NCBI GenBank assembly: GCA_964291235.2
Contig: OZ219815.1
Span: forward strand, 288,001 to 352,000
DNA: 64,000 nt
Direction of reading: 5' to 3'
From: Vicinamibacteria bacterium
Lineage (GTDB): Bacteria; Acidobacteriota; Vicinamibacteria; Marinacidobacterales; Marinacidobacteraceae
Positions 2,700-16,804 of the stretch are shown here, in pieces. The translations under genes were made by a program, and so were the position numbers. The first letter of the stretch is position 1, and each line of letters begins with the position of its first letter. A model generated the notes under the pieces. That model saw only the letters and a list, made by a program, of their open reading frames with translations. It had not been told where the DNA came from and made no database searches.

Positions 2700-3566
2700 T
2701 CAGCCCAGCGCCACCCGGTCCACCACCAGCACCAGGATGAGCGCCGGCACGTAGGCAATCGATGCTCTCAGCACCCGGCGCGCGTCGGGGACCCCGCGGC
2801 TCCAGGCGAACTCGGCGGCCGCGGTCATGAACCAGATCGCGAGCGCGGCGGCGCCGACGAAGTAGAGCCAACCCGTAAGCGACAGCGCGGCCGGCCAGAG
2901 GCTCAGCGCTGCGAGCAGCACGGTGAAGAACAGCGTCTGGCGCACGGTCGAGCGGCCCGAGGGGTCCACCGCCGGGAGCATCACGAAACCCCCCTTCCCG
3001 TAGTCGTCGCGGTACATCCAGGCGAGCGGCAGGAAGTGCGCCATCTGCCAGGCGACGAGGATGGAGAACATCGCGATGCCGCCCCAGCCGACGGACCCGG
3101 TAGCCGCGGACCAGCCGCAGAGCGCGGGCAAGGCGCCCGGGACGGTACCGATCAGGGTGTTCCAGTGCGTCCGGCGCTTCAGGGGCGTGTACACGAACAG
3201 GTAGAGCAGGACCGTGAGCAGCGTCAGCCCGCCGGTCAGGAGGTTCAAGAATCCGCCCAGCAACCCGGTTCCGGCCACCGCCAGCCCGATCCCGCTGGCG
3301 AGCGCGGCCGCCGGCGAGAGGCGTCCGGACGGCAGCGGACGCCCCCGCGTCCGGCGCATGCCGGCGTCGTGATCCCGCTCGACCCAGTGGTTCAGGGCGC
3401 CCGCGCCGCCGCTCGCGAGCGTGACGCCGGCGAGCAGAAGGAGCAGCCGGCCCCAGTCGAACAGCTCCGCGGGCGCCAGCAGGAACCCTCCTGCCGACGA
3501 GAGCGCGACGACCAGCGCGATCTCGGGCTTGGTGAGTTCGAGATAGGGGGTAAGCGTGCGCGTCAA
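2700..3566 (-). CDS. ctaB: Protoheme IX farnesyltransferase (heme o synthase)
   Basis: YLELTKP, ALNHWVERDHDAGMRRTRGRPLPSG, YTPLKRRTHWNTLIG, YRDDY; UbiA family, multiple TM helices; TTG start. Confidence 0.92.
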   Translation of the reverse strand: MTRTLTPYLELTKPEIALVVALSSAGGFLLAPAELFDWGRLLLLLAGVTLASGGAGALNHWVERDHDAGMRRTRGRPLPSGRLSPAAALASGIGLAVAGTGLLGGFLNLLTGGLTLLTVLLYLFVYTPLKRRTHWNTLIGTVPGALPALCGWSAATGSVGWGGIAMFSILVAWQMAHFLPLAWMYRDDYGKGGFVMLPAVDPSGRSTVRQTLFFTVLLAALSLWPAALSLTGWLYFVGAAALAIWFMTAAAEFAWSRGVPDARRVLRASIAYVPALILVLVVDRVALG

Positions 3567-3569
3567 GGT

Positions 3570-4499
3570 TCAGCCTGCCGCGGCGGGTCTGCGGCCCCAG
3601 CGGTGGGTGGCGAGCACGGCGAGCACCGCACCGGCCATCAGGAAAGCGCCGACCACCGCGTGCGAGGTGTTCACCACCGCCTGCAGGTTGCTCGGCTGCA
3701 GCATCCCGGCGTCGTCCAGGGTCACGAAGTACGCGGTCAGCCCGAGAATCAGTTGCACGTCCACCAGGCCGGCGAGGACCCAGGCCCCCCGGTAGAGCAC
3801 GCGCGCATCCCGATGCTCGCTCCAGACCCGGAGCAGAAAAGCCGCGACCACGGCGGCGACCAGGACCGCCCCGGCGATGTGGAGGCCGACCAGCAGGGGA
3901 TGGATGCCGGTGCCCGGGTGGCGAAGCAGCGCGCCGAGGATGATCTGGAACCAGACGGCGCCGGGGACGGCCAGCGCGAGCCGCCAGAGCCGGACGTCCC
4001 GGTTTTCAGCCGTCCCCCCGGCGCCCTGCCACCAGTGCGAGGTGAATACCGCCATCGCCACGATCAGGCCGAGGAAGAGTTGCGCGGTCGCGGCGTGGAT
4101 CACCGCCAGGTCGAGCGACAGCCACACCACCCGAAGCCCGCCCAGCAGGCCCTGGAAGGACACCAGGGCCAGCGCGCCGACCGCGAGCCAGCGCAGCCAG
4201 CGCCGGGACTCGGCGAACCAGGTCCACACCGCGAGCACCGTGGTCAGCAGTCCGACCAGCATCCCGAGGAGCCGGTGGCCGTGCTCCGCGAGGAGCGGCG
4301 TGATCCGCCACCACCCCGGCCAGGGGTTGAAGGGGTCGTAGGAGTCGTAGGACGAGGGCCAGTCGGGAACGGCCAGACCGGCCTCGATGCTGGTGACGAA
4401 CGCGCCCCACCCCATGAGCACGAGCGTGGCCAGGGCGGTCAGGACGGTGAAGCGGCGCCGCCACCGCATGTGGGCTGACCCGTCCGAAGTTCTCACCAT
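3570..4499 (-). CDS. ctaA: COX15/CtaA family heme A synthase
   Basis: GAFVTSIEAGLAVPDWP, EHGHRLLG, QGLLGGLRV, conserved His residues; directly upstream of ctaB. Confidence 0.88.
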   Translation of the reverse strand: MVRTSDGSAHMRWRRRFTVLTALATLVLMGWGAFVTSIEAGLAVPDWPSSYDSYDPFNPWPGWWRITPLLAEHGHRLLGMLVGLLTTVLAVWTWFAESRRWLRWLAVGALALVSFQGLLGGLRVVWLSLDLAVIHAATAQLFLGLIVAMAVFTSHWWQGAGGTAENRDVRLWRLALAVPGAVWFQIILGALLRHPGTGIHPLLVGLHIAGAVLVAAVVAAFLLRVWSEHRDARVLYRGAWVLAGLVDVQLILGLTAYFVTLDDAGMLQPSNLQAVVNTSHAVVGAFLMAGAVLAVLATHRWGRRPAAAG

Positions 4500-4568
4500 T
4501 TGGAGGCCGCCGAACGATAGCGGGGACGGCGCTCGGCGCCGAGCCTCCGAATCAGAAAGCTCTGCGTC

Positions 4569-5063
4569 TCAACCCCGCCGCCGGTAGAACGCGATCAGGT
4601 CCTGGCTCCGGGGGGGCTCGGCGCCGAGCTGGCGCAGCATCGTCGTCACCTGCCCCCGGTGGAAGCTCCCGTGGTTCACGATCTGTTGCAGCATGTGCGA
4701 GAAGACCGAGCCGGTCGGCCGCCCGCGATGGACGTAGTCGATCACCCGGTCCACGCCATCCGCTCCGAGCCCTCCCAGGAACGCCCGCACCCGCCGCTCT
4801 TCCTCGCTCCAGCGCGCACGAACGTCCTCCACCGTCTCGAAATCGTCGGCGGTCAGTTGCCCGTCCGGGGTGGTTCCCTCCCAGCGCGAACACCAGAACC
4901 ATTCAGCGAACACCAGGTGCACGAGCGTGTCGCGGATGGAGCCGAAGCTGTTCCCGAGATCCCGGCGGAACTCCTCGGGAGTGAGCCGTTCGACCGCGTC
5001 CAGCGCGCGGTCACGCGCCCAGTAGTGATAGTCGAGGAGGGTGGTCAGGTCTTCGTGCGTCAT
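4569..5063 (-). CDS. DinB family protein
   Basis: SFGSIRDTLVHLVFAE and NHGSFHRGQVTTMLRQLG metal-binding His motifs. Confidence 0.88.
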   Translation of the reverse strand: MTHEDLTTLLDYHYWARDRALDAVERLTPEEFRRDLGNSFGSIRDTLVHLVFAEWFWCSRWEGTTPDGQLTADDFETVEDVRARWSEEERRVRAFLGGLGADGVDRVIDYVHRGRPTGSVFSHMLQQIVNHGSFHRGQVTTMLRQLGAEPPRSQDLIAFYRRRG

Positions 5064-5122
5064 GCCGCCAGCGTACCGCCGGCCGAACTCCGGCCCGATC
5101 GACTCCGATACCGTAGGGGGCC

Positions 5123-5725
5123 GTGACCTGGGCCCAGCTCCTCGCCTTCAATGTCACCCTGCTCGTCGCGATGGCGACCCCCGGTCCGGCGCTGCTCGTC
5201 GCGGTCCAGACGAACCTGAGCACGGGGCGCCGCGGCGGGATCGCGGTGGGCGCCGGCCTCGGCCTGGTGGCCGCGACCTGGACGCTGATGGCCCTGATCG
5301 GGTTCGCGGCGATCTTCGAGCTGTTTCCGGCCGTGTACGTGGGGGCGAAGACCGCGGGCGCCGTGTACCTCCTCTACCTCGCCTACCGGATGTGGCGGGA
5401 CGCCTCCACCCCGGTCGGCACGTTGCCCGAGCCGGCGCGCCGCGCGTTCCGGCACGGCCTCCTCATCAATCTCTTCAACCCGAAAGCAGTCCTCTTCGCG
5501 GCGGCGGTTCTGATCGCGATCTTCCCGGGCGGCCTGAGCCTCGGAAACAGTGTGGCGATCGCGCTGAACCACCTCCTGATCGAACTCTCGTTCTACACGG
5601 CGCTCGCCGTGTGTCTCAACACCGAGGCGGTCACCGGCCGCTACCTCCGCGCCCGGACCTGGATCGACCGGGGCGCGGCGGCGGTGCTCGGCGCGCTGGG
5701 ACTGCGGATCCTGCTCAGCCGCTGA
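5123..5725 (+). CDS. LysE/RhtB family translocator
   Basis: TPGP, GAVYLLYLAY, FRHGLLINLFNPKAVLF; about 6 TM helices; GTG start. Confidence 0.9.
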   Translation: MTWAQLLAFNVTLLVAMATPGPALLVAVQTNLSTGRRGGIAVGAGLGLVAATWTLMALIGFAAIFELFPAVYVGAKTAGAVYLLYLAYRMWRDASTPVGTLPEPARRAFRHGLLINLFNPKAVLFAAAVLIAIFPGGLSLGNSVAIALNHLLIELSFYTALAVCLNTEAVTGRYLRARTWIDRGAAAVLGALGLRILLSR

Positions 5726-5737
5726 CGCCGGGCCACC

Positions 5738-6520
5738 ATGAGCTCATTCCCGACCCGCTACGGGAGGTGGGCGGTGGTGGCGGGCGCTTCGGAGGGACTC
5801 GGCGAGGCCTTCGCCGCGGCGCTCGCCGAACGGGGCATGAACGTGGTGATGGTGGCGCGCCGCGGCCGCATCCTGGAGGCGATCGGAGAGCGGCTCGCCG
5901 CCGAGCACGGGGTCGAGGTCCGCAGCCTGGAACTCGATCTTTCCGACCCGGGGTTCCCGGAGACCCTGAAGGACGCCACCCGCGACCTCGACCTCGGGGT
6001 GCTCGTCTATAACGCCGCCTTCGTGCCGATGGGCCCGTTCCTCGACCACGACGAAACCGCCATCGAGCAAGCGGTGGACGTCAACGTCCGCGGGCCGCTG
6101 CGGCTGGTGCGGGCGCTCGCGCCGGTGCTCAAGGAGCGCGGCCGGGGCGCGGTCGTGCTCATGTCCTCGCTGTCCGGCCTGCAGGGGTCGCCCCGCATCT
6201 CCTTGTACGCGGCCACCAAGGCGTTCAACACGATCTTCGCCGAGGGCCTCTGGTACGAGCTGGCGCCCTACGGAATCGAGGTAGCCGCCTGCGTCTCCGG
6301 CGCGGTCCCCACTCCCGGCTACCTGGAGCGCTTCAAGCGCGAGGCGCCCGGCATGCTGTCGGCCGACGAGGCCGTCCGCCAGACCCTCGACCGGCTCGGC
6401 AAGGGGCCGCGCATCGTCCCGGGGCGGTTCAACCGGTTCGCACACCAGCTCGTGAGGCGCCTCCTGCCCCGCCGGACGGCGATCCGCCTCCTCGCGAAGA
6501 GCACGACGCACGTGGGATGA
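5738..6520 (+). CDS. Classical SDR oxidoreductase (17beta-HSD/ketoacyl reductase-like)
   Basis: AGASEGLG Rossmann motif, VYNAA, YAATK catalytic motif; ATGA overlap with next gene. Confidence 0.88.
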   Translation: MSSFPTRYGRWAVVAGASEGLGEAFAAALAERGMNVVMVARRGRILEAIGERLAAEHGVEVRSLELDLSDPGFPETLKDATRDLDLGVLVYNAAFVPMGPFLDHDETAIEQAVDVNVRGPLRLVRALAPVLKERGRGAVVLMSSLSGLQGSPRISLYAATKAFNTIFAEGLWYELAPYGIEVAACVSGAVPTPGYLERFKREAPGMLSADEAVRQTLDRLGKGPRIVPGRFNRFAHQLVRRLLPRRTAIRLLAKSTTHVG

Positions 6521-7599
6521 CCGATCTGCTGGTCGGGTTCTTCGCGCCCTGGGCGGTGTTCGCCGGGATCTTCGCGCTGCACCTCGTGCTGCCGGCGCGC
6601 CGGGTGCCGGGCTACGTGCGGGATGAACGGACGGGCGAATTCCTGCGCTATCGCCTCAACGGCCCGCGGGTGTTCCTGGTCACCGTGGGCGCGTGGTTCG
6701 CCGCCGGGGCGAACGGCGTCATGCCCTGGGACTGGCTCTGGCAGCACCGCTGGTCCGGCGCGGCGGGCGCGATGACCCTGGGCCTCGTGGTTTCCGCCGC
6801 CGTGGTGCTGACCGCGCCCGGAGGCACGGGCGCCCTGCTCCGGGAGCTCTACCTCGGACGCCGGGTCAACCCGCAGCCGTTCGGCGGCCGCGCCGACGCC
6901 AAGATGTTCCTCTACCTGGCGGGCGCCGTGCTGCTGGAGCTGAACCTCCTCTCCTTCGCCGCCCACCATGTCCTCAGTTATCCGGACGACCCGTCTCCGG
7001 GAATCGTGCTCTACGTCGCGCTGTTCACGTGGTTCGTCGGCGACTACCTCGTCTTCGAGCGCGTCCACCTCTATACCTACGACCTCTTCGCGGAGCGGGT
7101 GGGGTTCAAGCTCGTGTGGGGCTGCCTTTGCTGGTATCCGTACTTCTATGGCGTGGGACTGTGGTCGGTGGCGGATCTCCCGAACCCGGAGGCGCCGAGC
7201 TGGCTGCTGGCCCTTGCCGCCGCCCTCTTCTTCGCCGGCTGGACGCTGTCCCGGGGCGCGAACCTCCAGAAGTTCCACTTCAAGCGGGACCCCGCGAGGA
7301 GTTTTCTCGGAATCCGGCCGCGGACTCTCGGGGAGGGCGAACGCCGCCTGCTCGTCAGCGGCTTCTGGGGCGTGTCACGTCATGTCAATTACTCGGGTGA
7401 AATCCTCATGGCGGTCGGCCTGGCGCTCGCGCTGGGACGGCCGGGGATGCTCGGGCCGTGGCTCTATCCGCTCTACTACCTAGCGCTCCTCGTCCCGCGG
7501 GAGCGCGACGACGACCGGCGCTGCGCGGCCAAGTACGGTTCGCTCTGGGAGCGGTACCGGAAGGAGGTGCCCTGGCGCATCGCGCCACGGATCTATTGA
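6517..7599 (+). CDS. ERG4/ERG24 family sterol reductase (Delta14/Delta7/Delta24 reductase-like)
   Basis: YRLNG, ERVGFKLVWG, GANLQKFHFK, LLVSGFWGVSRHVNYSGEILMA and RERDDDRRCAAKYG..WERYRKEVPWRIAPRIY match sterol reductase signatures; polytopic membrane protein. Confidence 0.85.
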   Translation: MTDLLVGFFAPWAVFAGIFALHLVLPARRVPGYVRDERTGEFLRYRLNGPRVFLVTVGAWFAAGANGVMPWDWLWQHRWSGAAGAMTLGLVVSAAVVLTAPGGTGALLRELYLGRRVNPQPFGGRADAKMFLYLAGAVLLELNLLSFAAHHVLSYPDDPSPGIVLYVALFTWFVGDYLVFERVHLYTYDLFAERVGFKLVWGCLCWYPYFYGVGLWSVADLPNPEAPSWLLALAAALFFAGWTLSRGANLQKFHFKRDPARSFLGIRPRTLGEGERRLLVSGFWGVSRHVNYSGEILMAVGLALALGRPGMLGPWLYPLYYLALLVPRERDDDRRCAAKYGSLWERYRKEVPWRIAPRIY

Positions 7600-7608
7600 G
7601 GAGGGTCG

Positions 7609-8805
7609 ATGAGAAAACTCGCAATCGGACTGCTGGGGCTCTTCCGGCGAGCGTCCCTGCTGATGCTCCGGCTGCGGGGGAAGACACCGGCGGACGCCGC
7701 CGCCGAGCGGGTGGTCACTGGCCGGGCGTGGGACGAGTTCTGCGACACGTTGAAGGCCGCCGGGGCGGCGCTCCACTACCCCGGCGCTCCCCGGAATGCG
7801 TTCGACCAGGCGGAGGGCTACCGCTATCTGAGCCGGCTGACCCGCGCCGGGCTCATGGCGTTCGTAGAGCACGCCGACCCGCGGGCGCCGGTGCTCCACC
7901 GGGTGGCAAACGAGACGGTCAAGCTGGGCAGCGACAACCCCGACAACCACTACCAGACGGCCGCCATCCGCGGCGATTGGGACTACCGGATCTCGGGCCG
8001 GCGGAACACCGTCCGGTATCTCGGCTTCGGCACCCAGGCGGGGCACTACGGACAGGGTGGCGGGCTGCCGCCGACGGGCTACGTCGAGGCCAGCGAACTC
8101 GAGATCGGCGCCGACGGCCGCTTCGAGCTGGTCGTCAGCAGCCGGCCCCACGAGGGGAACTGGCTCCCCATGACCCCGGAGACCCGGACGCTGATCGTCC
8201 GTCAGACGTTCCTCGACCGCGAGACCGAAACCCCGGCCGACCTGCGCATCGAGCGGATCGGGTGCCCGGACGACGAAAGGCGCCCCGGTCCCCTGACTCC
8301 CGAAAAGCTCGACGAGGGCCTGAAGTCCGCCGGCACCCTGGTGGCGGGCGCCGCGATGCTCTTCGCGAAGTGGGCCCGCGGCTTCCAGAAGCACACGAAC
8401 ACCCTGCCCCGGTTCGATCCGGAGGTTTCCCTCAAGGCGGGCGGCGACCCGAACATCGCGTATTTCCACAGTCACTGGGCGCTCGCCGCGGACGAAGCGC
8501 TGGTGATCGAGACGACGCCGCCCGCGTGCGAACACTGGAACTTCCAGGTGAACAACTACTGGATGGAGTCGCTGGACTACCGCCACCACCGGGTCCACAC
8601 CAACAAGCACCTCGCGCACGCCGAGGGGGACGGCTCGGTGCGCCTCGTTGTCGCCCACGAGGATCCCGGGCTCCCGAACTGGCTGGAGACCGCCGGCCAC
8701 ACCTCGGGCACCATGTGCTTTCGCTGGATCCGGGCGGACGAACACCCCGAGCCGCGGACCCGGGTGGTGAAGCTGGCGGAGCTACGCGCGGAATCCGGGC
8801 CGTGA
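7609..8805 (+). CDS. DUF1214-domain protein (sulfotransferase-associated type)
   Basis: AEGYRYLSRL, KLGSDNPDNHY, LIVRQTFLDR, WNFQVNNYWMESLDYR, DPGLPNWLETAGH; GAGGAGG RBS. Confidence 0.8.
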   Translation: MRKLAIGLLGLFRRASLLMLRLRGKTPADAAAERVVTGRAWDEFCDTLKAAGAALHYPGAPRNAFDQAEGYRYLSRLTRAGLMAFVEHADPRAPVLHRVANETVKLGSDNPDNHYQTAAIRGDWDYRISGRRNTVRYLGFGTQAGHYGQGGGLPPTGYVEASELEIGADGRFELVVSSRPHEGNWLPMTPETRTLIVRQTFLDRETETPADLRIERIGCPDDERRPGPLTPEKLDEGLKSAGTLVAGAAMLFAKWARGFQKHTNTLPRFDPEVSLKAGGDPNIAYFHSHWALAADEALVIETTPPACEHWNFQVNNYWMESLDYRHHRVHTNKHLAHAEGDGSVRLVVAHEDPGLPNWLETAGHTSGTMCFRWIRADEHPEPRTRVVKLAELRAESGP

Positions 8806-10079
8806 CCCCGCGCGAGACCTCGACCGACTACGCCCGGCCCTACCGCCCGCGGTCCGTCGCGCTCCTCAACCGGGCGGGACGGCTGGCGCGGCGGTTCGGC
8901 CTCGGCGGCGCCCTGAACGTGGACCGGATGATCGCCGCGGCGCGACGGAAGACCGGGCTGTCCGACTTCGGCGACGAGTGGTTCCTCGCGCCCCTCCGCG
9001 TCCTCGTCGATTCCATCAACCGGGAGGCGCGGCTGACGCCGATGGGCGCCCTGATCCAGCGTTCCCGGCTGGTGTCGGCCCTGGCCATCCGGCTGCGCGC
9101 CGAGCGCCTCCTGCGGGAACACCCGGAGATCCGCGATCTGGACCTCGGCAGGGTCATCGTGATCGCCGGGCTCCAGCGCACCGGCACGACCCTGCTGCAC
9201 CGGCTGATCGCCGCCGATCCCGGAGTACGCGCCCTCCGGTCCTGGGAAGCGCTGAGCCCCGTGCCGCTCCCCGGCGAAAGGCCCGGCGATCCCCGGCGCC
9301 GGGTCCGGGGGGCGAAGCTGGCGGCGCGGGCGATCCGGTTCCTGGCGCCGGACTTTCTCGCCGTCCATCCGGTCGAACCCGACGCAACGGAAGAAGACGT
9401 GCTGTTGCTCGACGTGTCCTTCATGAGCCAGTCGCCGGAGGCCACGATGCACGTGCCGGCGTACTCCCGCTGGCTCGAAGCCCAGGATCACACCAGGGCC
9501 TACGCATACCTGGCCACCCTGCTCCGGATCCTGCACTGGCAGCATCCGGGCCGGTACTGGGTGCTGAAGACGCCCCATCACCTGGAACATCTCGATGTCC
9601 TGCTGGACGCCTTCCCAAACGTGTGCGTCGTCCAGACGCATCGCGATCCGAAGGAATCCGTGCCGTCGTTCTGGAGTATGGTGGCCCACGCCAGAGGGAT
9701 GCTGAGCGACCAGGTGGACGCGCGTGAGGTCGCTGCGCACTGGCTGCGCAAGACGCGCCGGATGCTGGAGCGCTCCACGGACGTGCGAAAAGCGAGACCG
9801 GACGGGGCGTTCGTGGACGCCTCCTACCGCGACCTGGTCGGGGATCCGCTCGGCGAGCTGCGCCGGGTGTACGAGGCGGCGGGCGCCACCTTCACCGACG
9901 AGGCCGAGGCTGCCGCGAAGGCCGCCCTGGCGCAGAACGTGAAGAACCGCTACGGCCGGCACATCTACTCGGCGGCGAGCTTCGGTTTCGACGGCCGGGC
10001 CCTCGACGAGCACTTCGGCTTCTACCGGCGGGCGTACGACGTTCCCGACGCGGCGGGCGCCGGGAAGGGCAACCCGTAG
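8802..10079 (+). CDS. PAPS-dependent sulfotransferase (Sulfotransfer_3 type)
   Basis: 5'-PSB loop IAGLQRTGTTLLHRL, WVLKTPHHL, 3'-PB VQTHRDP..S. GTG start overlaps the upstream stop (GTGA at 8802-8805); the 7458 ORF start is a shadow extension. Confidence 0.88.
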   Translation: MTPRETSTDYARPYRPRSVALLNRAGRLARRFGLGGALNVDRMIAAARRKTGLSDFGDEWFLAPLRVLVDSINREARLTPMGALIQRSRLVSALAIRLRAERLLREHPEIRDLDLGRVIVIAGLQRTGTTLLHRLIAADPGVRALRSWEALSPVPLPGERPGDPRRRVRGAKLAARAIRFLAPDFLAVHPVEPDATEEDVLLLDVSFMSQSPEATMHVPAYSRWLEAQDHTRAYAYLATLLRILHWQHPGRYWVLKTPHHLEHLDVLLDAFPNVCVVQTHRDPKESVPSFWSMVAHARGMLSDQVDAREVAAHWLRKTRRMLERSTDVRKARPDGAFVDASYRDLVGDPLGELRRVYEAAGATFTDEAEAAAKAALAQNVKNRYGRHIYSAASFGFDGRALDEHFGFYRRAYDVPDAAGAGKGNP

Positions 10080-10081
10080 CG

Positions 10082-11116
10082 ATGCGCAGGATCATCAAGG
10101 CGGTATCCGGCGCGATCGGCGACCGCTACTCGCAAAGGCCAACGCTCGACCCGGTCCCGGAAAGCGTCCGGATCGACAGCAAGATCTGCCTGGTGACCGG
10201 CGCCAACAGCGGGCTCGGCAAGGCGGTGGCGGTGGACCTCGCGCGGCGCGGCGGCCGCGTCCTGATGGCCTGCCGCGGCGGCCATCCCGAAGCGGGCGAG
10301 GAGGTCCGGCGGCGCTCCGGCGCCGACTCGGTGGAGATGCTCAAGGTGGATCTAGCCGATCTGGGGTCCGTGCAAGCGCTCGCCGACCGGCTCCGGGACG
10401 CTCCCGGGCGGGTGGACATCGTGGTGCTGAACGCCGGAGTGATGCCGCGCACCGCGCGCCGGTCGGCCCAGGGCTACGAGTTGATGTTCGCAGTGCACTT
10501 CGTGGCGAATCGCCTGCTGATCGACCGGCTGCTCGCGGACGGAACGATCCGGCCGTCCGGGGATCCCGGCGAAACGCCCCGGATCGTGTTCGTGGCGTCC
10601 GAGCAGCATCGCGCGGCCCGCCCGATCGACTTCGACGCCTTCGGCGCGTTCACCGACTACGGCCTGACCGACGGCCTCTACTACTACGGGCTGAGCAAGC
10701 TGCACCTCGTCACCTACGCGAAGGAGCTCTCGCGCCGCCTGAATCCCGGCTCCGGGGTCCGGGTCGCGGTCCATTCCCTCTGCCCGGGGGCGGTCAACTC
10801 CAACCTCGCCCGCGAAGCGCCGGCGTTCCTGAAGCCGCTGCTGTTCCCGGTCATGCGCCTCGCGTTCGCCTCACCCGAGAAGGCGGCGGCGCCGGTCACC
10901 TACGCGTGCTGCGCGGAGGACACCGGCCGGCGCAGCGGGCTCTACCTGCACCTCATGCAGGAGAAAGATCCGTCCCCGCACGCGATGGACGAGGCCGCCG
11001 GCGCCCGGCTCTGGGAAGCGAGTGCCGCGCTGCTGGCAAAACACGCGCCAGCAGGCGAAGTCTCGGCGCTCCGGCGTTTGCGCGCTTCGGCTCGGCCGCT
11101 TGGCAATGACAGCTAG
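10082..11116 (+). CDS. SDR oxidoreductase, retinol dehydrogenase/WWOX-like
   Basis: VTGANSGLG, DLADLGSV, LNAGVM, YGLSK, HSLCPGAVNSNL. Confidence 0.88.
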   Translation: MRRIIKAVSGAIGDRYSQRPTLDPVPESVRIDSKICLVTGANSGLGKAVAVDLARRGGRVLMACRGGHPEAGEEVRRRSGADSVEMLKVDLADLGSVQALADRLRDAPGRVDIVVLNAGVMPRTARRSAQGYELMFAVHFVANRLLIDRLLADGTIRPSGDPGETPRIVFVASEQHRAARPIDFDAFGAFTDYGLTDGLYYYGLSKLHLVTYAKELSRRLNPGSGVRVAVHSLCPGAVNSNLAREAPAFLKPLLFPVMRLAFASPEKAAAPVTYACCAEDTGRRSGLYLHLMQEKDPSPHAMDEAAGARLWEASAALLAKHAPAGEVSALRRLRASARPLGNDS

Positions 11117-12336
11117 CGATACCCCGCAGGCCCGCCACGCGCCGGGCACACCTCCAAAGCGCCGATGTCGTGTTGGTGCACCTGCGCCGCCCATGCGGTG
11201 AACGCTGCGGTCCCGGGCAAACAAAGCGGGTTGTTCGCAAGGGTAAGGACTTCCAGTCGGACGAGCCCTACAAAGCTCTCGGGGACGACTCCTGACAGTC
11301 TGTTGTTGTCGAGGGACAGGATCGTCAGACTCGCGAGGTTACCGAGTTCGGGCGGGATGGCTCCCGACAACCCGTTGGAATGGAGCGACAGAATCGTGAG
11401 GCTGGCGAGGTCGCCGAGTTCAGGCGGGATGCCTCCCGACAGGTCGTTGGCGCCCAGATCCAGCCACGTCAGGCTGGCGAGACCGCCGAGTTCGGGCGGG
11501 ATGCCTCCCGACAGGCCGTTGGTGTGGAGCGACAGAGTCGTAAGGCTGGCAAGGTCGTCGAGTTCGGGTGGGATAGCTCCCGACAGGTCGTTGGCGGCCA
11601 GATCCAGCCACGTCAGGCTGGCGAGACCGCCGAGTTCGGGCGGGATGCCTCCCGACAGGCCGTTGGTGTGGAGCGACAGAGTCGTAAGGCTGGCAAGGTC
11701 GCCGAGTTCGGGTGGGATAGCTCCCGACAGGTCGTTGGCGCCCAGATCCAGCCCCGTCAGGCTGGCGAGACCGCCGAGTTCGGCCGGGATGGCTCCCGAC
11801 AGGCCGTTGCTGTGGAGCGACAGAGTCGTGAGGCTGGCAAGGTCGCCGAGTTCGGGTGGGATAGCTCCCGACAGGCCGTTGGCGTCGAGCAACAGGTATG
11901 TCAGGTTGGCGAGCGCGCCGAGCTCGGCGGGAATCGAGCCGGACAGATCGTTGAGGGTTAGGTCCAGGTGTGTCAGGCTGGCGAGCGCGCCTAGTTCGGG
12001 CGGAATCGAATCCGAAAGGTTGTTGTCCGCGAGAAGCAACTCGGTGACCCTTCCAGAGCTGTCGGTCTTCACCCCGAACCACTCCGACAGCGGGGCGTCG
12101 GTCAGCCAACCGCCGCTCCTGGTCCAGTTGGGCCCTCCGGTTGCCTCGTAAAGCGCCACCAGCAGCACGTCGTCGGCAACCTCGGGGACGGTCACCGGGG
12201 GGGCAGTCCCCACAGGCGTCGTTGGGGCCGGCCCCAGCGGTTCGTTGGTTCCGCCGCCGCATCCGCAAGCCCACAGGGCCACAGTCAGCAAGATCGCGGC
12301 CCGGTTCCAGGCTACGCAGCACTGCAATGAGAACAT
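11113..12336 (-). CDS. Secreted/lipoprotein leucine-rich repeat protein with plant-type 24-aa LRRs
   Basis: Signal with Cys (LWACGCGGG), Pro/Thr linker, N-cap LVALYEATGGPNW..W.GV, about 12 repeats of LxxLxLxxNxLSGxIPxELGxLxS; purine-rich RBS. Confidence 0.92.
   Translation of the reverse strand: MFSLQCCVAWNRAAILLTVALWACGCGGGTNEPLGPAPTTPVGTAPPVTVPEVADDVLLVALYEATGGPNWTRSGGWLTDAPLSEWFGVKTDSSGRVTELLLADNNLSDSIPPELGALASLTHLDLTLNDLSGSIPAELGALANLTYLLLDANGLSGAIPPELGDLASLTTLSLHSNGLSGAIPAELGGLASLTGLDLGANDLSGAIPPELGDLASLTTLSLHTNGLSGGIPPELGGLASLTWLDLAANDLSGAIPPELDDLASLTTLSLHTNGLSGGIPPELGGLASLTWLDLGANDLSGGIPPELGDLASLTILSLHSNGLSGAIPPELGNLASLTILSLDNNRLSGVVPESFVGLVRLEVLTLANNPLCLPGTAAFTAWAAQVHQHDIGALEVCPARGGPAGYR
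11330..12050. repeat. Intragenic 72-bp tandem repeats with a 144-bp higher-order period (LRR coding)
   Basis: Alternating units encoding LTTLSLH(S/T)NGLSG and LT(W/G)LDL(G/A)ANDLSG are nearly identical at DNA level. Confidence 0.9.
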
Positions 12337-12585
12337 GGGTTGTCTCCTCTCGTCCTGGCACGCATCTCCCTCTCACGAACCATCGTGGGAAACCAAGGCT
12401 CAAGGGTAGCCCAAGAGCAGACACAAGCGGGAACCAAGACATACCCGTTCTTGGGTTTGAGTAGAGGCTTCGGGGCCCGGCCCCGGCGGTGGCGGAAGGT
12501 TCGAGCCCGCACCCGTCGGCGGTGAGGGAAGATTCGCACTCGCGGCCCGTGAGAGCCTTGCCGGGCAGCCGGCCGCGTACTCACC

Positions 12586-13035
12586 GTGTTCCACTATCTG
12601 GTCGCTTCGAACCCGGTGGAGATCGATGCCCCCATCGAACGGGTGTGGGACATCCTCGTGGACTTCGAGCGCTACGGGGAGTGGAATCCCTTCACGACCC
12701 AGGTGGACGCGAGCCTCGAAATCGGCTCGCCAGTCATGCTGCACGTCAGGCTCGGGCGCCTGAAGCGGAAACAGCCCGAGCGGATCGAAACCGTCGAGCC
12801 GCCGCATCTCCTGGCCTGGGGCGTGACGATGGGCGCGCGCTTCCTGCTCGTCGCCCGCCGGGAGCAGCGGCTCGAAGCGCTGGGCGCAGCTCGCTGCCGC
12901 TACTCCACCACCGACGCCACGAGCGGGCTCCTGACCCCGCTGGTGGCCCTGCTCTTCGGCCGTCTCATCCGCCAGGGCTTCAACAACATGGCCGCAGCCC
13001 TCAAATCCCGCGCCGAAACTCGTAACCGCCAATAG
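12586..13035 (+). CDS. SRPBCC (START/polyketide cyclase-like) ligand-binding protein
   Basis: VEIDAPIERVWDILVDFERYGEWNPF...GFNNMAAALKSRAE. Confidence 0.88.
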   Translation: MFHYLVASNPVEIDAPIERVWDILVDFERYGEWNPFTTQVDASLEIGSPVMLHVRLGRLKRKQPERIETVEPPHLLAWGVTMGARFLLVARREQRLEALGAARCRYSTTDATSGLLTPLVALLFGRLIRQGFNNMAAALKSRAETRNRQ

Positions 13036-13110
13036 CCCACACGGCGCATGGGCCAGGGAGCGCCGGCCTCTGAGCTTGCCCCAGTTTCTCGGACCAGTGG
13101 GAGCGCCGGT

Positions 13111-13959
13111 TCATGGCGGCCCCCGGAGTTGTTGTTCGAAGTCTACGGGTGACAGGTAGCCGAGGGCGGAGTGCCGCCGATAAGGGTTGTACCAAGCCTC
13201 GATGAACTCGAAGACGGCTTCGCCGGCAGCTTTGGGGTTGGGGAACTGGGTCCGGTCGAGCACCTCGCACTCCAGGGTGGCGAAGAAGGACTCCGCCATC
13301 GCGTTGTCGTAGCAGTCCCCCACCGAACCCATGGAAGGCCGGACCCCGGTGGCCCGGCAGCGGCGCCCGAACGCCACCGAGGTGTATTGGCACCCCTGGT
13401 CCGAGTGGTGGATCACTCCCTGGGGCCGCCGCTGCTCGAGCGCCATGTCCAAGGCTTTCAGGACCAGGGTGGCCCGCGCATGCAGCGCCATCGCCCAGCC
13501 CACCACCCGCCGGCTGCAGGCGTCCACAACCACCGCCAGGTGCAACATTCGCGTCAGCGTCGGGATGTAGGTGATGTCGGCCACCCAGAGCTGGTCCAGA
13601 GCCGTGGCCTCGAAGTTCCGGTCCACCAGGTCCGGCGCCGGCCGCGCCTCGCCGCCCCGGATCGTGGTGCGGACGCGGCGTCGGCGGCTCACCCCACAGA
13701 TCCCCAACGCCCGCATCAGCCGCGCAACCCGCTTCCGGCTCGTCCGGTTCCCCCGCGCTGCCAACTCCGCCCGGATCCGCGGCGCCCCGTAGGTGCCTCG
13801 ACTCGCCGCATGCGCCGCCGCGATCTCCACCTTCAGGCGCTCGTCCGCCTGAACCCGTGCACTGGCCCCGCGGCCACGCCAGGCGTAGTACCCACTGCGG
13901 GACACTCCCAGCAGGCGCCCCATCTCCCGTACGCTCATCACGGCCTGGCTCGCATCCAT
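13111..13959 (-). CDS. IS3 transposase OrfB (DDE integrase core)
   Basis: TYGAPRI, WVADITYI, HHSDQGCQYTS, CYDNAMAESFFATLE, YNPYRRHSALGYLSP. Confidence 0.95.
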   Translation of the reverse strand: MDASQAVMSVREMGRLLGVSRSGYYAWRGRGASARVQADERLKVEIAAAHAASRGTYGAPRIRAELAARGNRTSRKRVARLMRALGICGVSRRRRVRTTIRGGEARPAPDLVDRNFEATALDQLWVADITYIPTLTRMLHLAVVVDACSRRVVGWAMALHARATLVLKALDMALEQRRPQGVIHHSDQGCQYTSVAFGRRCRATGVRPSMGSVGDCYDNAMAESFFATLECEVLDRTQFPNPKAAGEAVFEFIEAWYNPYRRHSALGYLSPVDFEQQLRGPP

Positions 13960-14261
13960 CAGTCGGTACCTCCCGACGATGTCTCCCGCGCGAACCAGGC
14001 CGCCGCTTTTTTTAAGAACGCGTTCTCCCGCTGCAGCCGCCGGTTCTCACGTTCCAGCCGCTTCAACTCCTCCCGCTCCTCCGTCGTCCAGCCGTCGCCC
14101 CCGCGGCCCTCCGCCGCATCCGCGTCCATCACCCAACGCCGGATCGCTCGCGGACTCGCCTCATACTCCTCCGCGACTTCCTCCGCGCTACGTCCCGCGC
14201 GAACCAGCGCAACCACCCGCTTCCGATACTCCGCCGTATATCGGCGTCCAGGACTGCCCAT
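13959..14261 (-). CDS. IS3 transposase OrfA (HTH plus leucine zipper)
   Basis: RRYTAEYRKRVVALV...ELKRLERENRRLQRENAFLKKAAAWF; GGAGGT RBS before ATG at 14261; TGATG overlap with orfB. Confidence 0.92.
   Translation of the reverse strand: MGSPGRRYTAEYRKRVVALVRAGRSAEEVAEEYEASPRAIRRWVMDADAAEGRGGDGWTTEEREELKRLERENRRLQRENAFLKKAAAWFARETSSGGTD
14006..14013 (-). other. Programmed -1 frameshift motif AAAAAAAG producing OrfAB
   Basis: Minus strand reads TTA AAA AAA GCG; the -1 frame stays open into the orfB ATG at 13959. Confidence 0.85.
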
Positions 14262-14549
14262 CTCAGACCTCCTTTGTGCCACCGGCACTATGAGTGGTCC
14301 GTTTTCCCGGGGCAACTCCACTCCAGGCCGGCACAGCCCGCCGCAGGCGGGCGGCGGGACAGACCCCCAGCAGCCTTGATGTCGCAAAGGCAAGGGAGCC
14401 CCCACCGGGAGAACTGGGCCGGCCTCCAGTTCGGCACAGCAGGGCGGGAGGCCGTAAACCGAACAGGAAAAGTCGCATTACGATTTGTAATTCTCGGCAA
14501 CTTACGGTCCAATCCCTAGAGCAGAAATGCGGCACCAATGGTGATTTGA

Positions 14550-15656
14550 TTGGGAACGATTCTGAAGTTGCGGGGCCAAAGCTCGAGACGACGCCCCGCG
14601 TCAGGGCTCGCAAGACCCTCCCCGATCAGGAACGGCCTCTTGGTGGCGGCCCTTTGCTTCGGCACGTTCTGGTCCGCGGCCGCGCCAGGGAGTGGAGTCC
14701 AGCTCCCGCCCCGGGTCCTGTTGGACCAGCTTCTGCTGCGGATCGATCGGCTGGTCGAGGCCGACGACCTCGACGCCGCGGTGCAGACAATGGAGGAGGC
14801 GCTCGCCCTCGCGGCGGAACACGAACTGGAGTTGCCCCCGGACTTCCGTTTCGAGCAGGCCCGGGTGGCGTTCGCGGTGGGGCTACTGGGGGCGGCGAAG
14901 GAATCGGTCACCGGGTACCTGGCGGTTGTGAGCCGCGAGGCGGAGTCGTACGTCGATGCCGTGGAGCTGCTGGAAGACGTGGACCGGATCCTGGAGCGCC
15001 GCGATGCGCCGGAGTGCTCGGCCCTGCCGGAGGGTCCGGCATGCTGGATGGAACTCACCAGCCATCCCGGTTGTTACGTCTGGAATCCCGCCCCGCAGGC
15101 TACGGAGACCGCGACGTGGACGGGCGAGTGCTCGGCTGGTTTCGCACAGCGCTCCGGGACGGTGATCTGGACGTATCGGGATGGCGAGCAAGAAGAGGAA
15201 GGAAACCTCCGATACGGCCGGTCGCATGGCGAGTGCCTGATCCGGGACACGGCGGGTTGGGTTTCCGAGGGGCGGTACCGGTTCGGGAAGCGACACGGAG
15301 CTTGGATCGAGAGAACCGCGGACGGAGATGTCCTGGAAGGGCCGTATGTGGATGGCGAGAGGAACGGGCGCTGGGTCGTGAGCTTTGCGGACGAAAGGGG
15401 GATCCAAGCAGGACCGTACATGGACGGGAGGCAGCACGGCCAATGGGTCCTGAAGTTCACGGACAACAGGGGAATCCAGGAAGGACCGTATCTGGACGGG
15501 AAGATGCACGGCCACTGGGTCCTGCGGTTTCCGGATGACGTGGTCGAGAGCGGGACAGTAGTGAACGGAGAGAAGCACGGCCGCTGGCGAATGGTTTTTC
15601 CCGACGGCGAAGTGACCTACTTCGAGTACGTGCACGGGGTCCGTCAGGAACCCTGA
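14550..15656 (+). CDS. Secreted MORN-like repeat protein, paralog 1 (helical N-domain, Cys module, 23-aa repeats); start uncertain
   Basis: QLPP..DQLLLR helical domain; C..P.G..CWMEL..PGC.VWN...WTGECS.G module; repeats EGPY.DG..HG.W. Confidence 0.75.
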   Translation: MGTILKLRGQSSRRRPASGLARPSPIRNGLLVAALCFGTFWSAAAPGSGVQLPPRVLLDQLLLRIDRLVEADDLDAAVQTMEEALALAAEHELELPPDFRFEQARVAFAVGLLGAAKESVTGYLAVVSREAESYVDAVELLEDVDRILERRDAPECSALPEGPACWMELTSHPGCYVWNPAPQATETATWTGECSAGFAQRSGTVIWTYRDGEQEEEGNLRYGRSHGECLIRDTAGWVSEGRYRFGKRHGAWIERTADGDVLEGPYVDGERNGRWVVSFADERGIQAGPYMDGRQHGQWVLKFTDNRGIQEGPYLDGKMHGHWVLRFPDDVVESGTVVNGEKHGRWRMVFPDGEVTYFEYVHGVRQEP

Positions 15657-15685
15657 CCGCCGACGGAAACGCGCGTCGCGACACG

Positions 15686-16804
15686 ATGGTGAGCACCGCC
15701 GCTCGGCCCGACGCGAACACCGAGCCGCCCCCGATCGAGCCCGACATTCGGGTCGGCTTCGTCCTGTTGCCGCAGTTCACCATGCTGTCCTTCGCGGGGT
15801 TCCTGGACGTGCTCCGCCACGCGTCCTATCCGGCGGACCGCGCCGGCCGGACCCATTGCGCGTGGGAGATCGTCGCGCCGACGCTGGAGCCGGTGCTGGC
15901 GAACGGCGGCGTCGCGGTGACTCCGCAGTCGCTGCTCGGGGATCCGACCCGTTTCGATTGCGTCGTCGTCGTGGGCGGTCCGTTGCCGTCGTCGCGGCGG
16001 CACCCTCCCGAGACCCTCGCGTTCCTCCGGCGGGCGGACGAGGCGGGACTGCTCATCGCGGGACTCTGCACCGGGTGTTTCGCGCTGGCGGCGGCGGGCC
16101 TGCTGGACCACTGCCGCTGTTCCGTGCACTTCCGCCACGCCGAGGAGTTCAGGGCCCGGTTCCCGCGGGCGGAGGTCGCCGTCCACGAGGTCTATGCGTT
16201 CGACCACAACATCGCCACCTGCCCCGGCGGGACCGCATCGATCGATCTTGCGGTGGACATCGTCTCCCGCTTCAGCAGCCGGACGCGGGCGACGAAGGGC
16301 CTCGCCGATCTCCTCGTGGACGAGCACCGCTCCGCGTTCCATGCCCCGGACCAGCCCTTCCGCGACCTCGAATCCTGCGGCGACAAACGCGTGGAGGCGG
16401 CTATCCGGCTGATGCGCCAGGACCTGCCAGGACATTCCTCCGTCAGGGACATCGCCCACGCCCTGCACCTGACCGTGGGCCAGCTCAACCGCGCCTTCAA
16501 GGCCCATACCGAACTCACTCCGACGGAGGTGTTTCGCGCGATGCGCCTGCAGCATGCGCGCTGGCAGCTGTTCAACTCCAGCCACTCGGTGGGCCAGATC
16601 GCCTTCGATTGCGGATTCTCGGACGGCCCGCACTTCATCCGGTGGTTCCGGCGCGTCTATGGCCAGACGCCGCATGCGGCGCGCAAGGAACGCGCTGCGG
16701 TCCGCGAGCAGGACGAAGGGTTGCGCGGCGATGCGCAGGCGTTCCGCCGGAGGGCGCCTCGCCAAACGAAGCGGGTGCGGGGCGCACCGGGCGGCGGGGC
16801 ATGA
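15686..16804 (+). CDS. GlxA-family transcriptional regulator (DJ-1/PfpI plus AraC HTH)
   Basis: GFVLLPQFTMLSFAGFLDVLRHA, GLCTGCFALAAAGLL, IAFDCGFSDGPHFIRWFRRVYGQTP. Confidence 0.9.
   Translation: MVSTAARPDANTEPPPIEPDIRVGFVLLPQFTMLSFAGFLDVLRHASYPADRAGRTHCAWEIVAPTLEPVLANGGVAVTPQSLLGDPTRFDCVVVVGGPLPSSRRHPPETLAFLRRADEAGLLIAGLCTGCFALAAAGLLDHCRCSVHFRHAEEFRARFPRAEVAVHEVYAFDHNIATCPGGTASIDLAVDIVSRFSSRTRATKGLADLLVDEHRSAFHAPDQPFRDLESCGDKRVEAAIRLMRQDLPGHSSVRDIAHALHLTVGQLNRAFKAHTELTPTEVFRAMRLQHARWQLFNSSHSVGQIAFDCGFSDGPHFIRWFRRVYGQTPHAARKERAAVREQDEGLRGDAQAFRRRAPRQTKRVRGAPGGGA

Follow-up and report, generated by a model that had tools for sequence, protein, structure and literature searches.

Can a bacterium that lacks the genes for sterol synthesis modify and sulfate sterols that it acquires from elsewhere? 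This question is raised by a cluster of co-oriented genes in a 64,000-nt stretch of DNA (hereafter the window; contig OZ219815.1, positions 288,001 to 352,000) from a bacterium of the class Vicinamibacteria (Acidobacteriota). The cluster encodes a short-chain dehydrogenase/reductase (SDR1), a membrane reductase of the ERG4/ERG24 family (ERG24), a DUF1214-like protein, an Stf-type sulfotransferase that depends on 3'-phosphoadenosine-5'-phosphosulfate (PAPS), a second SDR (SDR2) and a small SRPBCC protein. Our comparisons suggest, with a probability of roughly 0.55, that the cluster is an operon for the tailoring and sulfation of exogenous sterols.

An earlier note, made from the letters of the window, had proposed such an operon and described its genes and junctions. 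All the genes that it named were found by profile matches where it had placed them. Direct reading of the junctions confirmed the two overlaps that it had reported, ATGA between the stop of SDR1 and the start of ERG24 (6517-6520; -4 nt) and GTGA between the stop of the DUF1214-like gene and the start of the sulfotransferase gene (8802-8805; -4 nt), as well as the spacer of 12 nt between SDR1 and a LysE-family exporter gene upstream. The spacer from ERG24 to the DUF1214-like gene is 9 nt long and contains GGAGG, and that from the sulfotransferase gene to SDR2 is 2 nt. A scan of positions 4400-13300 for promoters and terminators gave no promoter-like site and one terminator-like site, which lay on the wrong strand, with no excess over shuffled sequences.

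Recurrence of the gene order across phyla

The ERG24 protein was used to scan species-representative genomes, and the 47 loci obtained were searched with the window proteins by tblastn (at least 50% coverage, E<=1e-10). The full order SDR1-ERG24-DUF1214-sulfotransferase-SDR2-SRPBCC was found in eight of these loci, with protein identities of 66-90%: four in Acidobacteriota (L003, L005, L008 and L019) and four in Gemmatimonadota/Longimicrobiales (L009, L011, L018 and L043). Recurrence of the whole order in 8/47 loci from two phyla is far beyond chance, and the operon is thus conserved in other genomes, one of the points on which the earlier note had staked its proposal. The locus L010 (Candidatus Palauibacter) carries SDR1-ERG24-SDR2-SRPBCC without the DUF1214-like and sulfotransferase genes. 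The SDR1-ERG24 pair was more widespread, being present in 27 of the 28 non-myxobacterial loci from Acidobacteriota, Gemmatimonadota, Actinomycetota and Pseudomonadota (the exception was L007). The remaining 19 loci (17 from Myxococcota, one from Candidatus Binatia and one from Bacteroidales) contain an ERG24 homologue with 54-60% identity, in most cases as an isolated gene; in L023 and L039 it is preceded by an SDR1-like gene. At L046, L047 and L049 the ERG24 matches were partial though SDR1 was kept, which may reflect gene decay or an assembly error.

The ERG24 tree was built from 43 rows after the removal of loci with less than 90% coverage (L041, L042, L044, L046, L047 and L049) and of L001, a duplicate of the window region. 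The window fell within a 24-row clade that spans four phyla (support 99) and is adjacent to a myxobacterial clade; most of the closest relatives that fall outside it came from myxobacterial genomes. Within the clade, the acidobacterial rows nested among the Gemmatimonadota rows, apart from the Thermoanaerobaculia row, and such nesting would be the pattern expected of transfer. The clade is rare in the phylum of the window genome: an even sample of 401 genomes from 228 genera gave the protein in 7 genomes, which belong to 2 genera, the window genome included (E<=1e-30). The genes that flank the cassette differ between phyla and, in the other phyla, are unrelated housekeeping genes. Genomes related through the cassette include Candidatus Poriferisodalis and Candidatus Palauibacter, and their association with sponges rests on the species names.

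Two modules and a sulfotransferase partner

In several genomes the genes of the cluster occur apart. The Poriferisodalis genome G004 carries the SDR1-ERG24 pair in L013 and the DUF1214-like gene, sulfotransferase gene and SDR2 elsewhere on the same chromosome, in L084, with 70%, 56% and 57% identity to the window proteins, respectively. Five further genomes with the SDR1-ERG24 pair (G003, G005, G411, G412 and G413) were searched for the other three genes. The triad was intact at another locus in G411, G412 and G413 (56-78% identity); the coordinates place that of G413 about 13 kb from ERG24. In G005 the sulfotransferase gene has two in-frame stops, possibly through an assembly error, and stands with SDR2 and no adjacent DUF1214-like gene (L108, G005:C1:1985073-1989293), and the search of the G003 genome gave no match. 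SDR2 follows the sulfotransferase gene in all full cassettes and in the separate loci L084, L106, L107 and L109. Since the two gene sets stand at separate loci elsewhere, we read the window cluster as two joined modules, module A (SDR1-ERG24) and module B (DUF1214-like gene, sulfotransferase gene and SDR2), together with the SRPBCC gene. That the cluster unites modules which are mobile independently of each other had escaped the earlier note.

L084 (G004:C1:222500-242400, positions 7171-15868) has a wider gene order of TetR, FA_hydroxylase-family, Sulfotransfer_5, DUF1214-like, Stf sulfotransferase, SDR2, CysD and CysNC, an arrangement that suggests hydroxylation and double sulfation with a dedicated PAPS supply. 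Genes for PAPS synthesis likewise adjoin module B in L101 and L102.

Within module B, the DUF1214-like protein goes regularly with the sulfotransferase. The DUF1214-like family is large, with 3855 clusters at 50% identity (E<=1e-3). In an even sample of Actinomycetota, a homologue occurred in 31 of 401 genomes (E<=1e-20), and a sulfotransferase homologue lay within the 1.5-kb flanks of the gene in 22 of the 30 best-hit loci. The corresponding figures for a Pseudomonadota sample were 5 of 401 genomes and an adjacent sulfotransferase gene in five of six loci. Taken together, the two genes were paired in 27/36 loci, at identities down to 27-35%, and this pairing over such distances is strong evidence that the predicted proteins form a functional couple. 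At one proteobacterial locus (L126, G908:C1:3280558-3284661) the pair adjoins an SRPBCC homologue with 44% identity; the association with SRPBCC extends beyond the sponge cassette.

The best match of the DUF1214-like protein in the PDB was 6ans (5.1e-120), an uncharacterised protein of Burkholderia cenocepacia. An AlphaFold2 model built from 67 sequences had a mean predicted local distance difference test score of 96.7, and a Foldseek search with this model returned 6ans (TM 0.89/0.96) followed by 3u07, 3vb9 and 2p3y (E 1e-10 to 1e-11), which are uncharacterised DUF1254/DUF1214 structures from Vibrio. Because only uncharacterised structures were returned, the DUF1214 fold gives no function. 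The alignment of the family contains many near-invariant polar residues, including several arginines. In one member, P0239 (539 aa), a DUF1214-like protein is naturally fused to a SnoaL/NTF2-like domain, which may hint at the chemistry of the family.

The sulfotransferase carries GLQRTGTT and THRDP, which we take to be the phosphosulfate-binding loop and the 3'-phosphate motif, respectively; within them R126, T127, T129, T130, H280 and R281 were invariant in 36 sequences. Its relatives are 417-425 aa long with 97-100% coverage, in agreement with the start codon that gives 425 aa. Its PDB matches, 2zq5 (4.8e-53) and 2z6v (8.5e-42), are both uncharacterised. The cassette gene is the sole Sulfotransfer_3 gene in the window genome. 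SDR2 contains TGANSGLG and YGLSK, which mark it as a classical SDR.

Sterols or other lipids as possible substrates

The assignment of ERG24 is the first of several independent lines of evidence that link the two modules to steroids. Its match to PF01222 spans model positions 76-432, and its nearest solved structure is PDB 4quv, a Delta(14)-sterol reductase (2.9e-41), with which about one third of the residues are identical. The two proteins share the C-terminal motifs LLxSGxWGxxRHxNYxG and REx(R/K)DDxxCxxKYGxxWxxYxxxVPWRIxPxIY, which presumably form the NADPH site. A full-length architecture of ten helices was not found, the match beginning at model position 76 (residue 74 of 4quv); the close relatives of ERG24 (more than 120 clusters, 67-86% identity) are likewise short, at 360 aa. 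Of five genomes searched that carry more distant relatives from beyond the four-phylum clade (four myxobacterial and one from Bacteroidales), three have full-length triterpene cyclases (243-247 bits), which also speaks for a link to steroids. SDR1 has the glycine-rich motif GASEGLG and the YxxxK motif YAATK of a classical SDR. Its top NCBIfam matches were mycolate reductase and then 7beta-hydroxysteroid dehydrogenase (7beta-HSDH), both far below the cut-off, and its best PDB matches were 5fyd/5gt9 (9e-31), of which we take 5fyd to be a 7beta-HSDH-like enzyme; the likeness to 7beta-HSDH is weak. The window genome contains a second ERG4/ERG24 gene (G000:C2:1855679-1856770; L050:9635-10774), whose product of 379 aa is 43% identical; it lies in an unrelated context of hydantoinase, S-Me-THD-like, AroM and peptidase genes, and homologues with 38-40% identity occur in the six genomes by which genus g147 was represented in the phylum sample.

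The second line of evidence comes from the six genomes with the cassette (the window genome and G001-G005). The earlier note had seen neither an oxidosqualene cyclase nor a squalene epoxidase in the window, and a search of the whole genome (90% complete) likewise came back without either: there was no match for a triterpene cyclase (PF13243) or a squalene epoxidase (PF08491 profile), nor for EBP or FA_hydroxylase. No full-length cyclase match was obtained for G001-G005, two of which gave partial matches of 34 bits. On these searches the window genome is predicted to be one that cannot make sterols. ERG24 genes enriched in sponge symbionts have been read as part of de novo bacterial sterol biosynthesis in the accessible text of Kelly 2022 (PMC9531527). 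For these genomes, that reading is contradicted by the missing cyclases, and there is no CYP51 or cyclase gene beside the cassette; we consider it highly improbable here. By contrast with 0 of 14 control genomes, all six cassette genomes contain Sterol_MT_C methyltransferases (65 bits in the window genome). The PAPS-synthesis genes for which the earlier note had suggested a check are also present, as adjacent CysD (C2:1602517-1603398) and CysNC (1603422-1605209) genes, with an adenosine-5'-phosphosulfate kinase match of 231.6 bits; they lie on contig C2 rather than beside module B. In the window genome, a sterol-type locus (L125, G000:C1:166000-185900) lies about 120 kb upstream of the cassette; besides the methyltransferase, P450 fusion and KshA-like Rieske oxygenase genes of Table 1, it includes an AcrB/HlyD/OEP RND efflux system and a flavin amine-oxidase-like gene.

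The third line is a distant counterpart of module B within a cluster for steroid catabolism. We take PDB 2zq5, the nearest solved relative of the sulfotransferase, to be Rv3529c/Stf1 of the mycobacterial cholesterol regulon; in the literature search on 2zq5 and 2z6v, the name 'Stf1' turned up in unrelated uses only. The actinobacterial locus L103 encodes, in order, a KstD-like protein, HsaE-, HsaG- and HsaF-like proteins, a PPE protein, a DUF1214-like protein (375 aa, 29% identity, E 1.8e-34), an SDR, a sulfotransferase (788 bits to 2zq5; 34% identity to that of the window) and KshA (KshA_C 295.9 bits). This arrangement matches the Rv3526-Rv3537 region. Rv3529c, Rv3530c and Rv3531c are named among the genes of the cholesterol cluster in the accessible part of PMC6429209, and the available text of Kendall 2007 (PMC1995591) places a KstR operator upstream of Rv3531c and reports that binding by KstR was confirmed. 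We found no functional study of Rv3529c in the literature, as judged mostly by titles and the openings of abstracts.

This counterpart raises the possibility that sulfation solubilises or activates a host steroid for degradation or detoxification, with a transient ester that may be processed by the DUF1214-like protein. Such a role in steroid removal would fit the placement of the counterpart among kshA, kstD and hsaEFG-like genes under a KstR operator, the KshA-like oxygenase of the window genome, the invariant polar and arginine residues of the DUF1214-like proteins, which resemble those of an enzyme or an anion-binding site, and the member of that family fused to a SnoaL/NTF2-like domain. 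However, the window contains no kshA, kstD or hsa genes, and no ring-cleavage (hsa) genes lie beside the cassette in the window or in the cassette genomes; the KshA-like gene adjoins a sterol methyltransferase, which is a tailoring and not a catabolic enzyme, and a single KshA_C-type match of 96 bits in a genome of 3.45 Mb is weak evidence for a full pathway of steroid catabolism. We therefore regard a role in removal as quite unlikely. Taken together, ERG4/ERG24 membership, the sterol methyltransferase homologues, the KshA-like oxygenase and the L103 unit appear to link both modules to steroids.

In the tailoring and sulfation that we propose, sterols from the host or from neighbouring microbes would enter the membrane of the sponge-associated acidobacterium. 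The ERG24-type enzyme would saturate a carbon-carbon double bond of the sterol with NADPH; from precedents in the family, Delta7 of 5,7-dienes, Delta14 and Delta24(28) are candidates. SDR1 would interconvert a ring hydroxyl and a ketone and, since SDR1 and SDR2 would together interconvert hydroxyl and keto groups, the two may decide which stereoisomer of the hydroxyl results. The sulfotransferase and its DUF1214-like partner would then transfer sulfate to a hydroxyl from PAPS supplied by CysD and CysNC of the same genome. The DUF1214-like protein may be an obligate partner that handles the substrate or performs a second chemical step, and the SRPBCC protein may hold or carry the hydrophobic substrate or product. 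The claim of the earlier note that the operon modifies and sulfates host sterols thus stands as regards a conserved operon in a PAPS-capable genome without sterol synthesis, whereas we only infer the sterol acceptor, the bond and hydroxyl that are altered, the sequence of the reactions and what becomes of the product.

Several observations weigh against tailoring and sulfation of sterols. The six cassette proteins and their close relatives are biochemically uncharacterised. ERG24 is a member of a short, uncharacterised subfamily in which the first ~75 model positions are missing and whose proteins NCBI names only 'DUF1295 domain-containing', and its myxobacterial relatives lie outside sterol gene clusters. 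The match of SDR1 to 7beta-HSDH reached 118.8 bits against a cut-off of 300, and neither SDR1 nor SDR2 is orthologous to the SDR of the mycobacterial-type unit. In the cassette genome G003, module A is accompanied by SDR2 and SRPBCC but by no sulfotransferase gene. Many DUF1214-sulfotransferase pairs have no steroid genes nearby; that of L093, for example, lies between suf and ABC-transporter genes. Stf enzymes also act on non-steroid lipids, as Stf0 does on trehalose and Stf3 on hydroxylated menaquinone. The co-occurrence of the two modules with a sterol methyltransferase may reflect a shared habitat and not one pathway.

Alternatively, the same enzymology may act on a non-steroid isoprenoid lipid: a polyprenyl (hydro)quinone (menaquinone, for example), polyprenol, meroterpenoid or carotenoid alcohol, in which an isoprene double bond would be saturated by the membrane reductase and sulfate placed on a hydroxyl at the terminus or on the ring. 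Sulfomenaquinone biosynthesis uses an Stf-family sulfotransferase, and sponges contain many sulfated terpenoid quinols. The solved relatives of the cassette sulfotransferase are all uncharacterised, as is the short subfamily of ERG24, and many DUF1214-sulfotransferase pairs adjoin genes for P450s, luciferase-like monooxygenases and acyl-CoA enzymes. Hydroquinone merotriterpenoids of sponges are described in the accessible text of PMC5618424. The sterol methyltransferase homologues in all six cassette genomes and the position of the mycobacterial-type counterpart inside a steroid-catabolic cluster argue the other way, and the cassette contains no prenyltransferase or quinone gene: a UbiA-type gene upstream pairs with CtaA and so reads as a gene of heme O/A synthesis. 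To our knowledge, every characterised ERG4/ERG24 member acts on sterols; the reduction of polyprenols and enones belongs to a separate family, that of steroid-5alpha-reductase. A non-steroid substrate is accordingly an unlikely alternative, and we retain sterol tailoring and sulfation as the preferred account of the operon.

Borders of the cassette and comparison with known systems

The borders of the cassette were drawn from a tblastx comparison of the window with the Gemmatimonadota locus L009, in which similarity covered positions 5625-11065 and 12474-13080; since tblastx is noisy at the GC content of the window (about 70%), this comparison alone was used. Between the two segments lies a leucine-rich repeat (LRR) gene with a lipoprotein-like N-terminus (Table 1), whose stop overlaps that of SDR2 in a convergent arrangement. 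No counterpart of the LRR gene was found in the 47 related loci (at least 50% coverage). In nine of the nine relatives that carry both SDR2 and SRPBCC (L003, L005, L008, L019, L009, L011, L018, L043 and L010), the SRPBCC gene lies directly 3' of SDR2, with a gap of ~50-100 nt and without an LRR gene, and its product is 60-85% identical to that of the window. Given its strand and the lack of any counterpart, the LRR gene is an insertion, and SRPBCC belongs to the cassette as its last gene. The earlier note had correctly placed the LRR gene between SDR2 and SRPBCC; its opposite strand and its absence from relatives rule it out as a member of the operon or pathway. An IS3-type transposase gene beside SRPBCC is likewise absent from the related loci.

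The upstream flank consists of DinB, CtaA and UbiA-type genes on the minus strand. LysE adjoins SDR1 only in six acidobacterial loci (L003-L006, L008 and L019), where it is accompanied by the DinB and CtaA flank. Because LysE is kept only with this acidobacterial flank, it lies outside the transferred cassette. The export of a product by LysE, which the earlier note had considered possible, was not borne out: LysE is a flank gene of one lineage and, by family, an amino-acid exporter, and we rejected it as the exporter of the product.

Table 1. Features of the cluster, its flanks and the sterol-type locus L125 (window positions unless a locus is given)
Feature	Position	Strand	Match
UbiA-type gene, upstream flank	2700-3566	-	
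LysE-family exporter	5123..5725	+	Pfam PF01810, 8.3e-29
SDR1, classical short-chain dehydrogenase, module A	5738..6520	+	adh_short 126.8 bits, 9.9e-37
ERG4/ERG24-family membrane reductase, 360 aa, module A	6517..7599	+	PF01222 153.7 bits (cut-off 27)
DUF1214-like protein, module B	7609..8805	+	PF06742 31.7 bits (cut-off 25)
Stf-type PAPS-dependent sulfotransferase, 425 aa, module B	8802..10079	+	Sulfotransfer_3 (PF13469) 144.1 bits (cut-off 27)
SDR2, PRK06197/retinol-dehydrogenase-like, module B	10082..11116	+	adh_short 67 bits; NF004846 121.8 bits, below cut-off
LRR lipoprotein gene	11113..12336	-	NCBIfam LRR-type matches (XopAE/XopAC/internalin-like repeats), all far below cut-off
SRPBCC (Polyketide_cyc2) small protein	12586..13035	+	PF10604 49.4 bits
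IS3-type transposase, cassette border	13111..14405 (orfB 13111-13959, orfA 13959-14405)	-	rve, HTH_21, rve_3; HTH_Tnp_1
Sterol_MT_C methyltransferase	L125:1171-2253		
GPP34-P450 fusion	L125:5562-7619	-	
KshA-like Rieske oxygenase	L125:9130-10266	-	KshA_C 94.8 bits

Sponge sterols and fossil steranes serve as animal biomarkers, so the identity of the organism that makes or remodels them matters. Symbionts of four phyla that lack cyclases share genes for a sterol-type reductase, a methyltransferase and sulfation, apparently through horizontal transfer; hence the sterol pool of sponges may be partly shaped by bacteria, and the operon offers a concrete candidate, amenable to expression, for where marine sterol sulfates come from. 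The DUF1214-sulfotransferase pairing gives a working context to a large protein family and to the solved structure 6ans, and it leads to a still unexplained gene unit of the mycobacterial cholesterol regulon. A broader proposal, which we put forward only tentatively and judge more doubtful than the sterol reading itself, is that a mobile 'sterol-finishing' operon moves across the phyla of sponge symbionts and enables bacteria without sterol synthesis to turn host sterols into reduced, sulfated steroids, and that, in bacteria generally, Stf-type lipid sulfotransferases require a DUF1214-like protein as their second component. If this were true, the sterol sulfates of sponges, and some sterol nuclei ascribed to sponges, would come in part from bacteria instead of the animal, and there would be an initial clue to the role of the three-gene unit in the mycobacterial cholesterol regulon.

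In the literature that we searched, neither this gene set nor the DUF1214-sulfotransferase pairing was described. Bacterial sulfation of cholesterol and modification of exogenous sterols are already known; the combination of genes and the pairing are new relative to the literature found. The closest functional parallel is the BT_0411-BT_0416 cluster of Bacteroides thetaiotaomicron, in which BT_0416, with neighbouring PAPS genes, sulfates cholesterol according to the accessible text of PMC9417993. In both cases a symbiont without sterol synthesis would sulfate a host sterol in a PAPS-dependent manner, and the adjacency of PAPS genes to the sulfotransferase gene recurs in relatives of the window (G004, L101 and L102). 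However, this adjacency is not seen in the window genome, where the PAPS genes lie on another contig (C2), and the Bacteroides cluster lacks a reductase, SDRs, a DUF1214-like protein and an SRPBCC protein; the two are likened by function and not by orthology of the sulfotransferases.

For the reductase, Coxiella burnetii offers a second parallel: this bacterium cannot make sterols, and we take its protein Stmp1 to be an ERG4/ERG24-type reductase. Stmp1 (CBU1206) is described in the accessible part of PMC8787468 as a sterol-modifying protein thought to act on host sterol. The likeness rests on this description, and Stmp1 differs in being the product of a single gene without a sulfation module in an intracellular pathogen. 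MaSR1 (PDB 4quv) and the eukaryotic enzymes ERG24/TM7SF2/LBR, ERG4 and DHCR7 belong to the same Pfam family as the window ERG24, whose C-terminal half aligns with 4quv through the conserved motifs; the window protein differs in an N-terminus that is ~70 residues shorter, in an SDR partner in place of CYP51 and a cyclase, and in its occurrence in genomes without sterol synthesis.

The steroid clusters of Ircinia sponge symbionts contain, according to the accessible text of Kelly 2022 (PMC9531527), a DFR-like gene, a hypothetical gene, ERG24, CYP51 and LSS; ERG24-CYP51-LSS clusters were reported there in 115/537 metagenome-assembled genomes, with horizontal transfer. Like the window cassette, they are steroid-type genes that include an ERG24 homologue and are shared horizontally among many phyla of sponge symbionts; they differ in being biosynthetic, with a cyclase and CYP51, whereas the window cassette has neither and adds sulfation. 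The Rv3531c-Rv3530c-Rv3529c unit, finally, resembles the window in combining a DUF1214-like protein, an SDR and an Stf-type sulfotransferase in one co-oriented unit, but it is distant, has a non-orthologous SDR, lacks ERG24 and SRPBCC, and lies inside a catabolic cluster.

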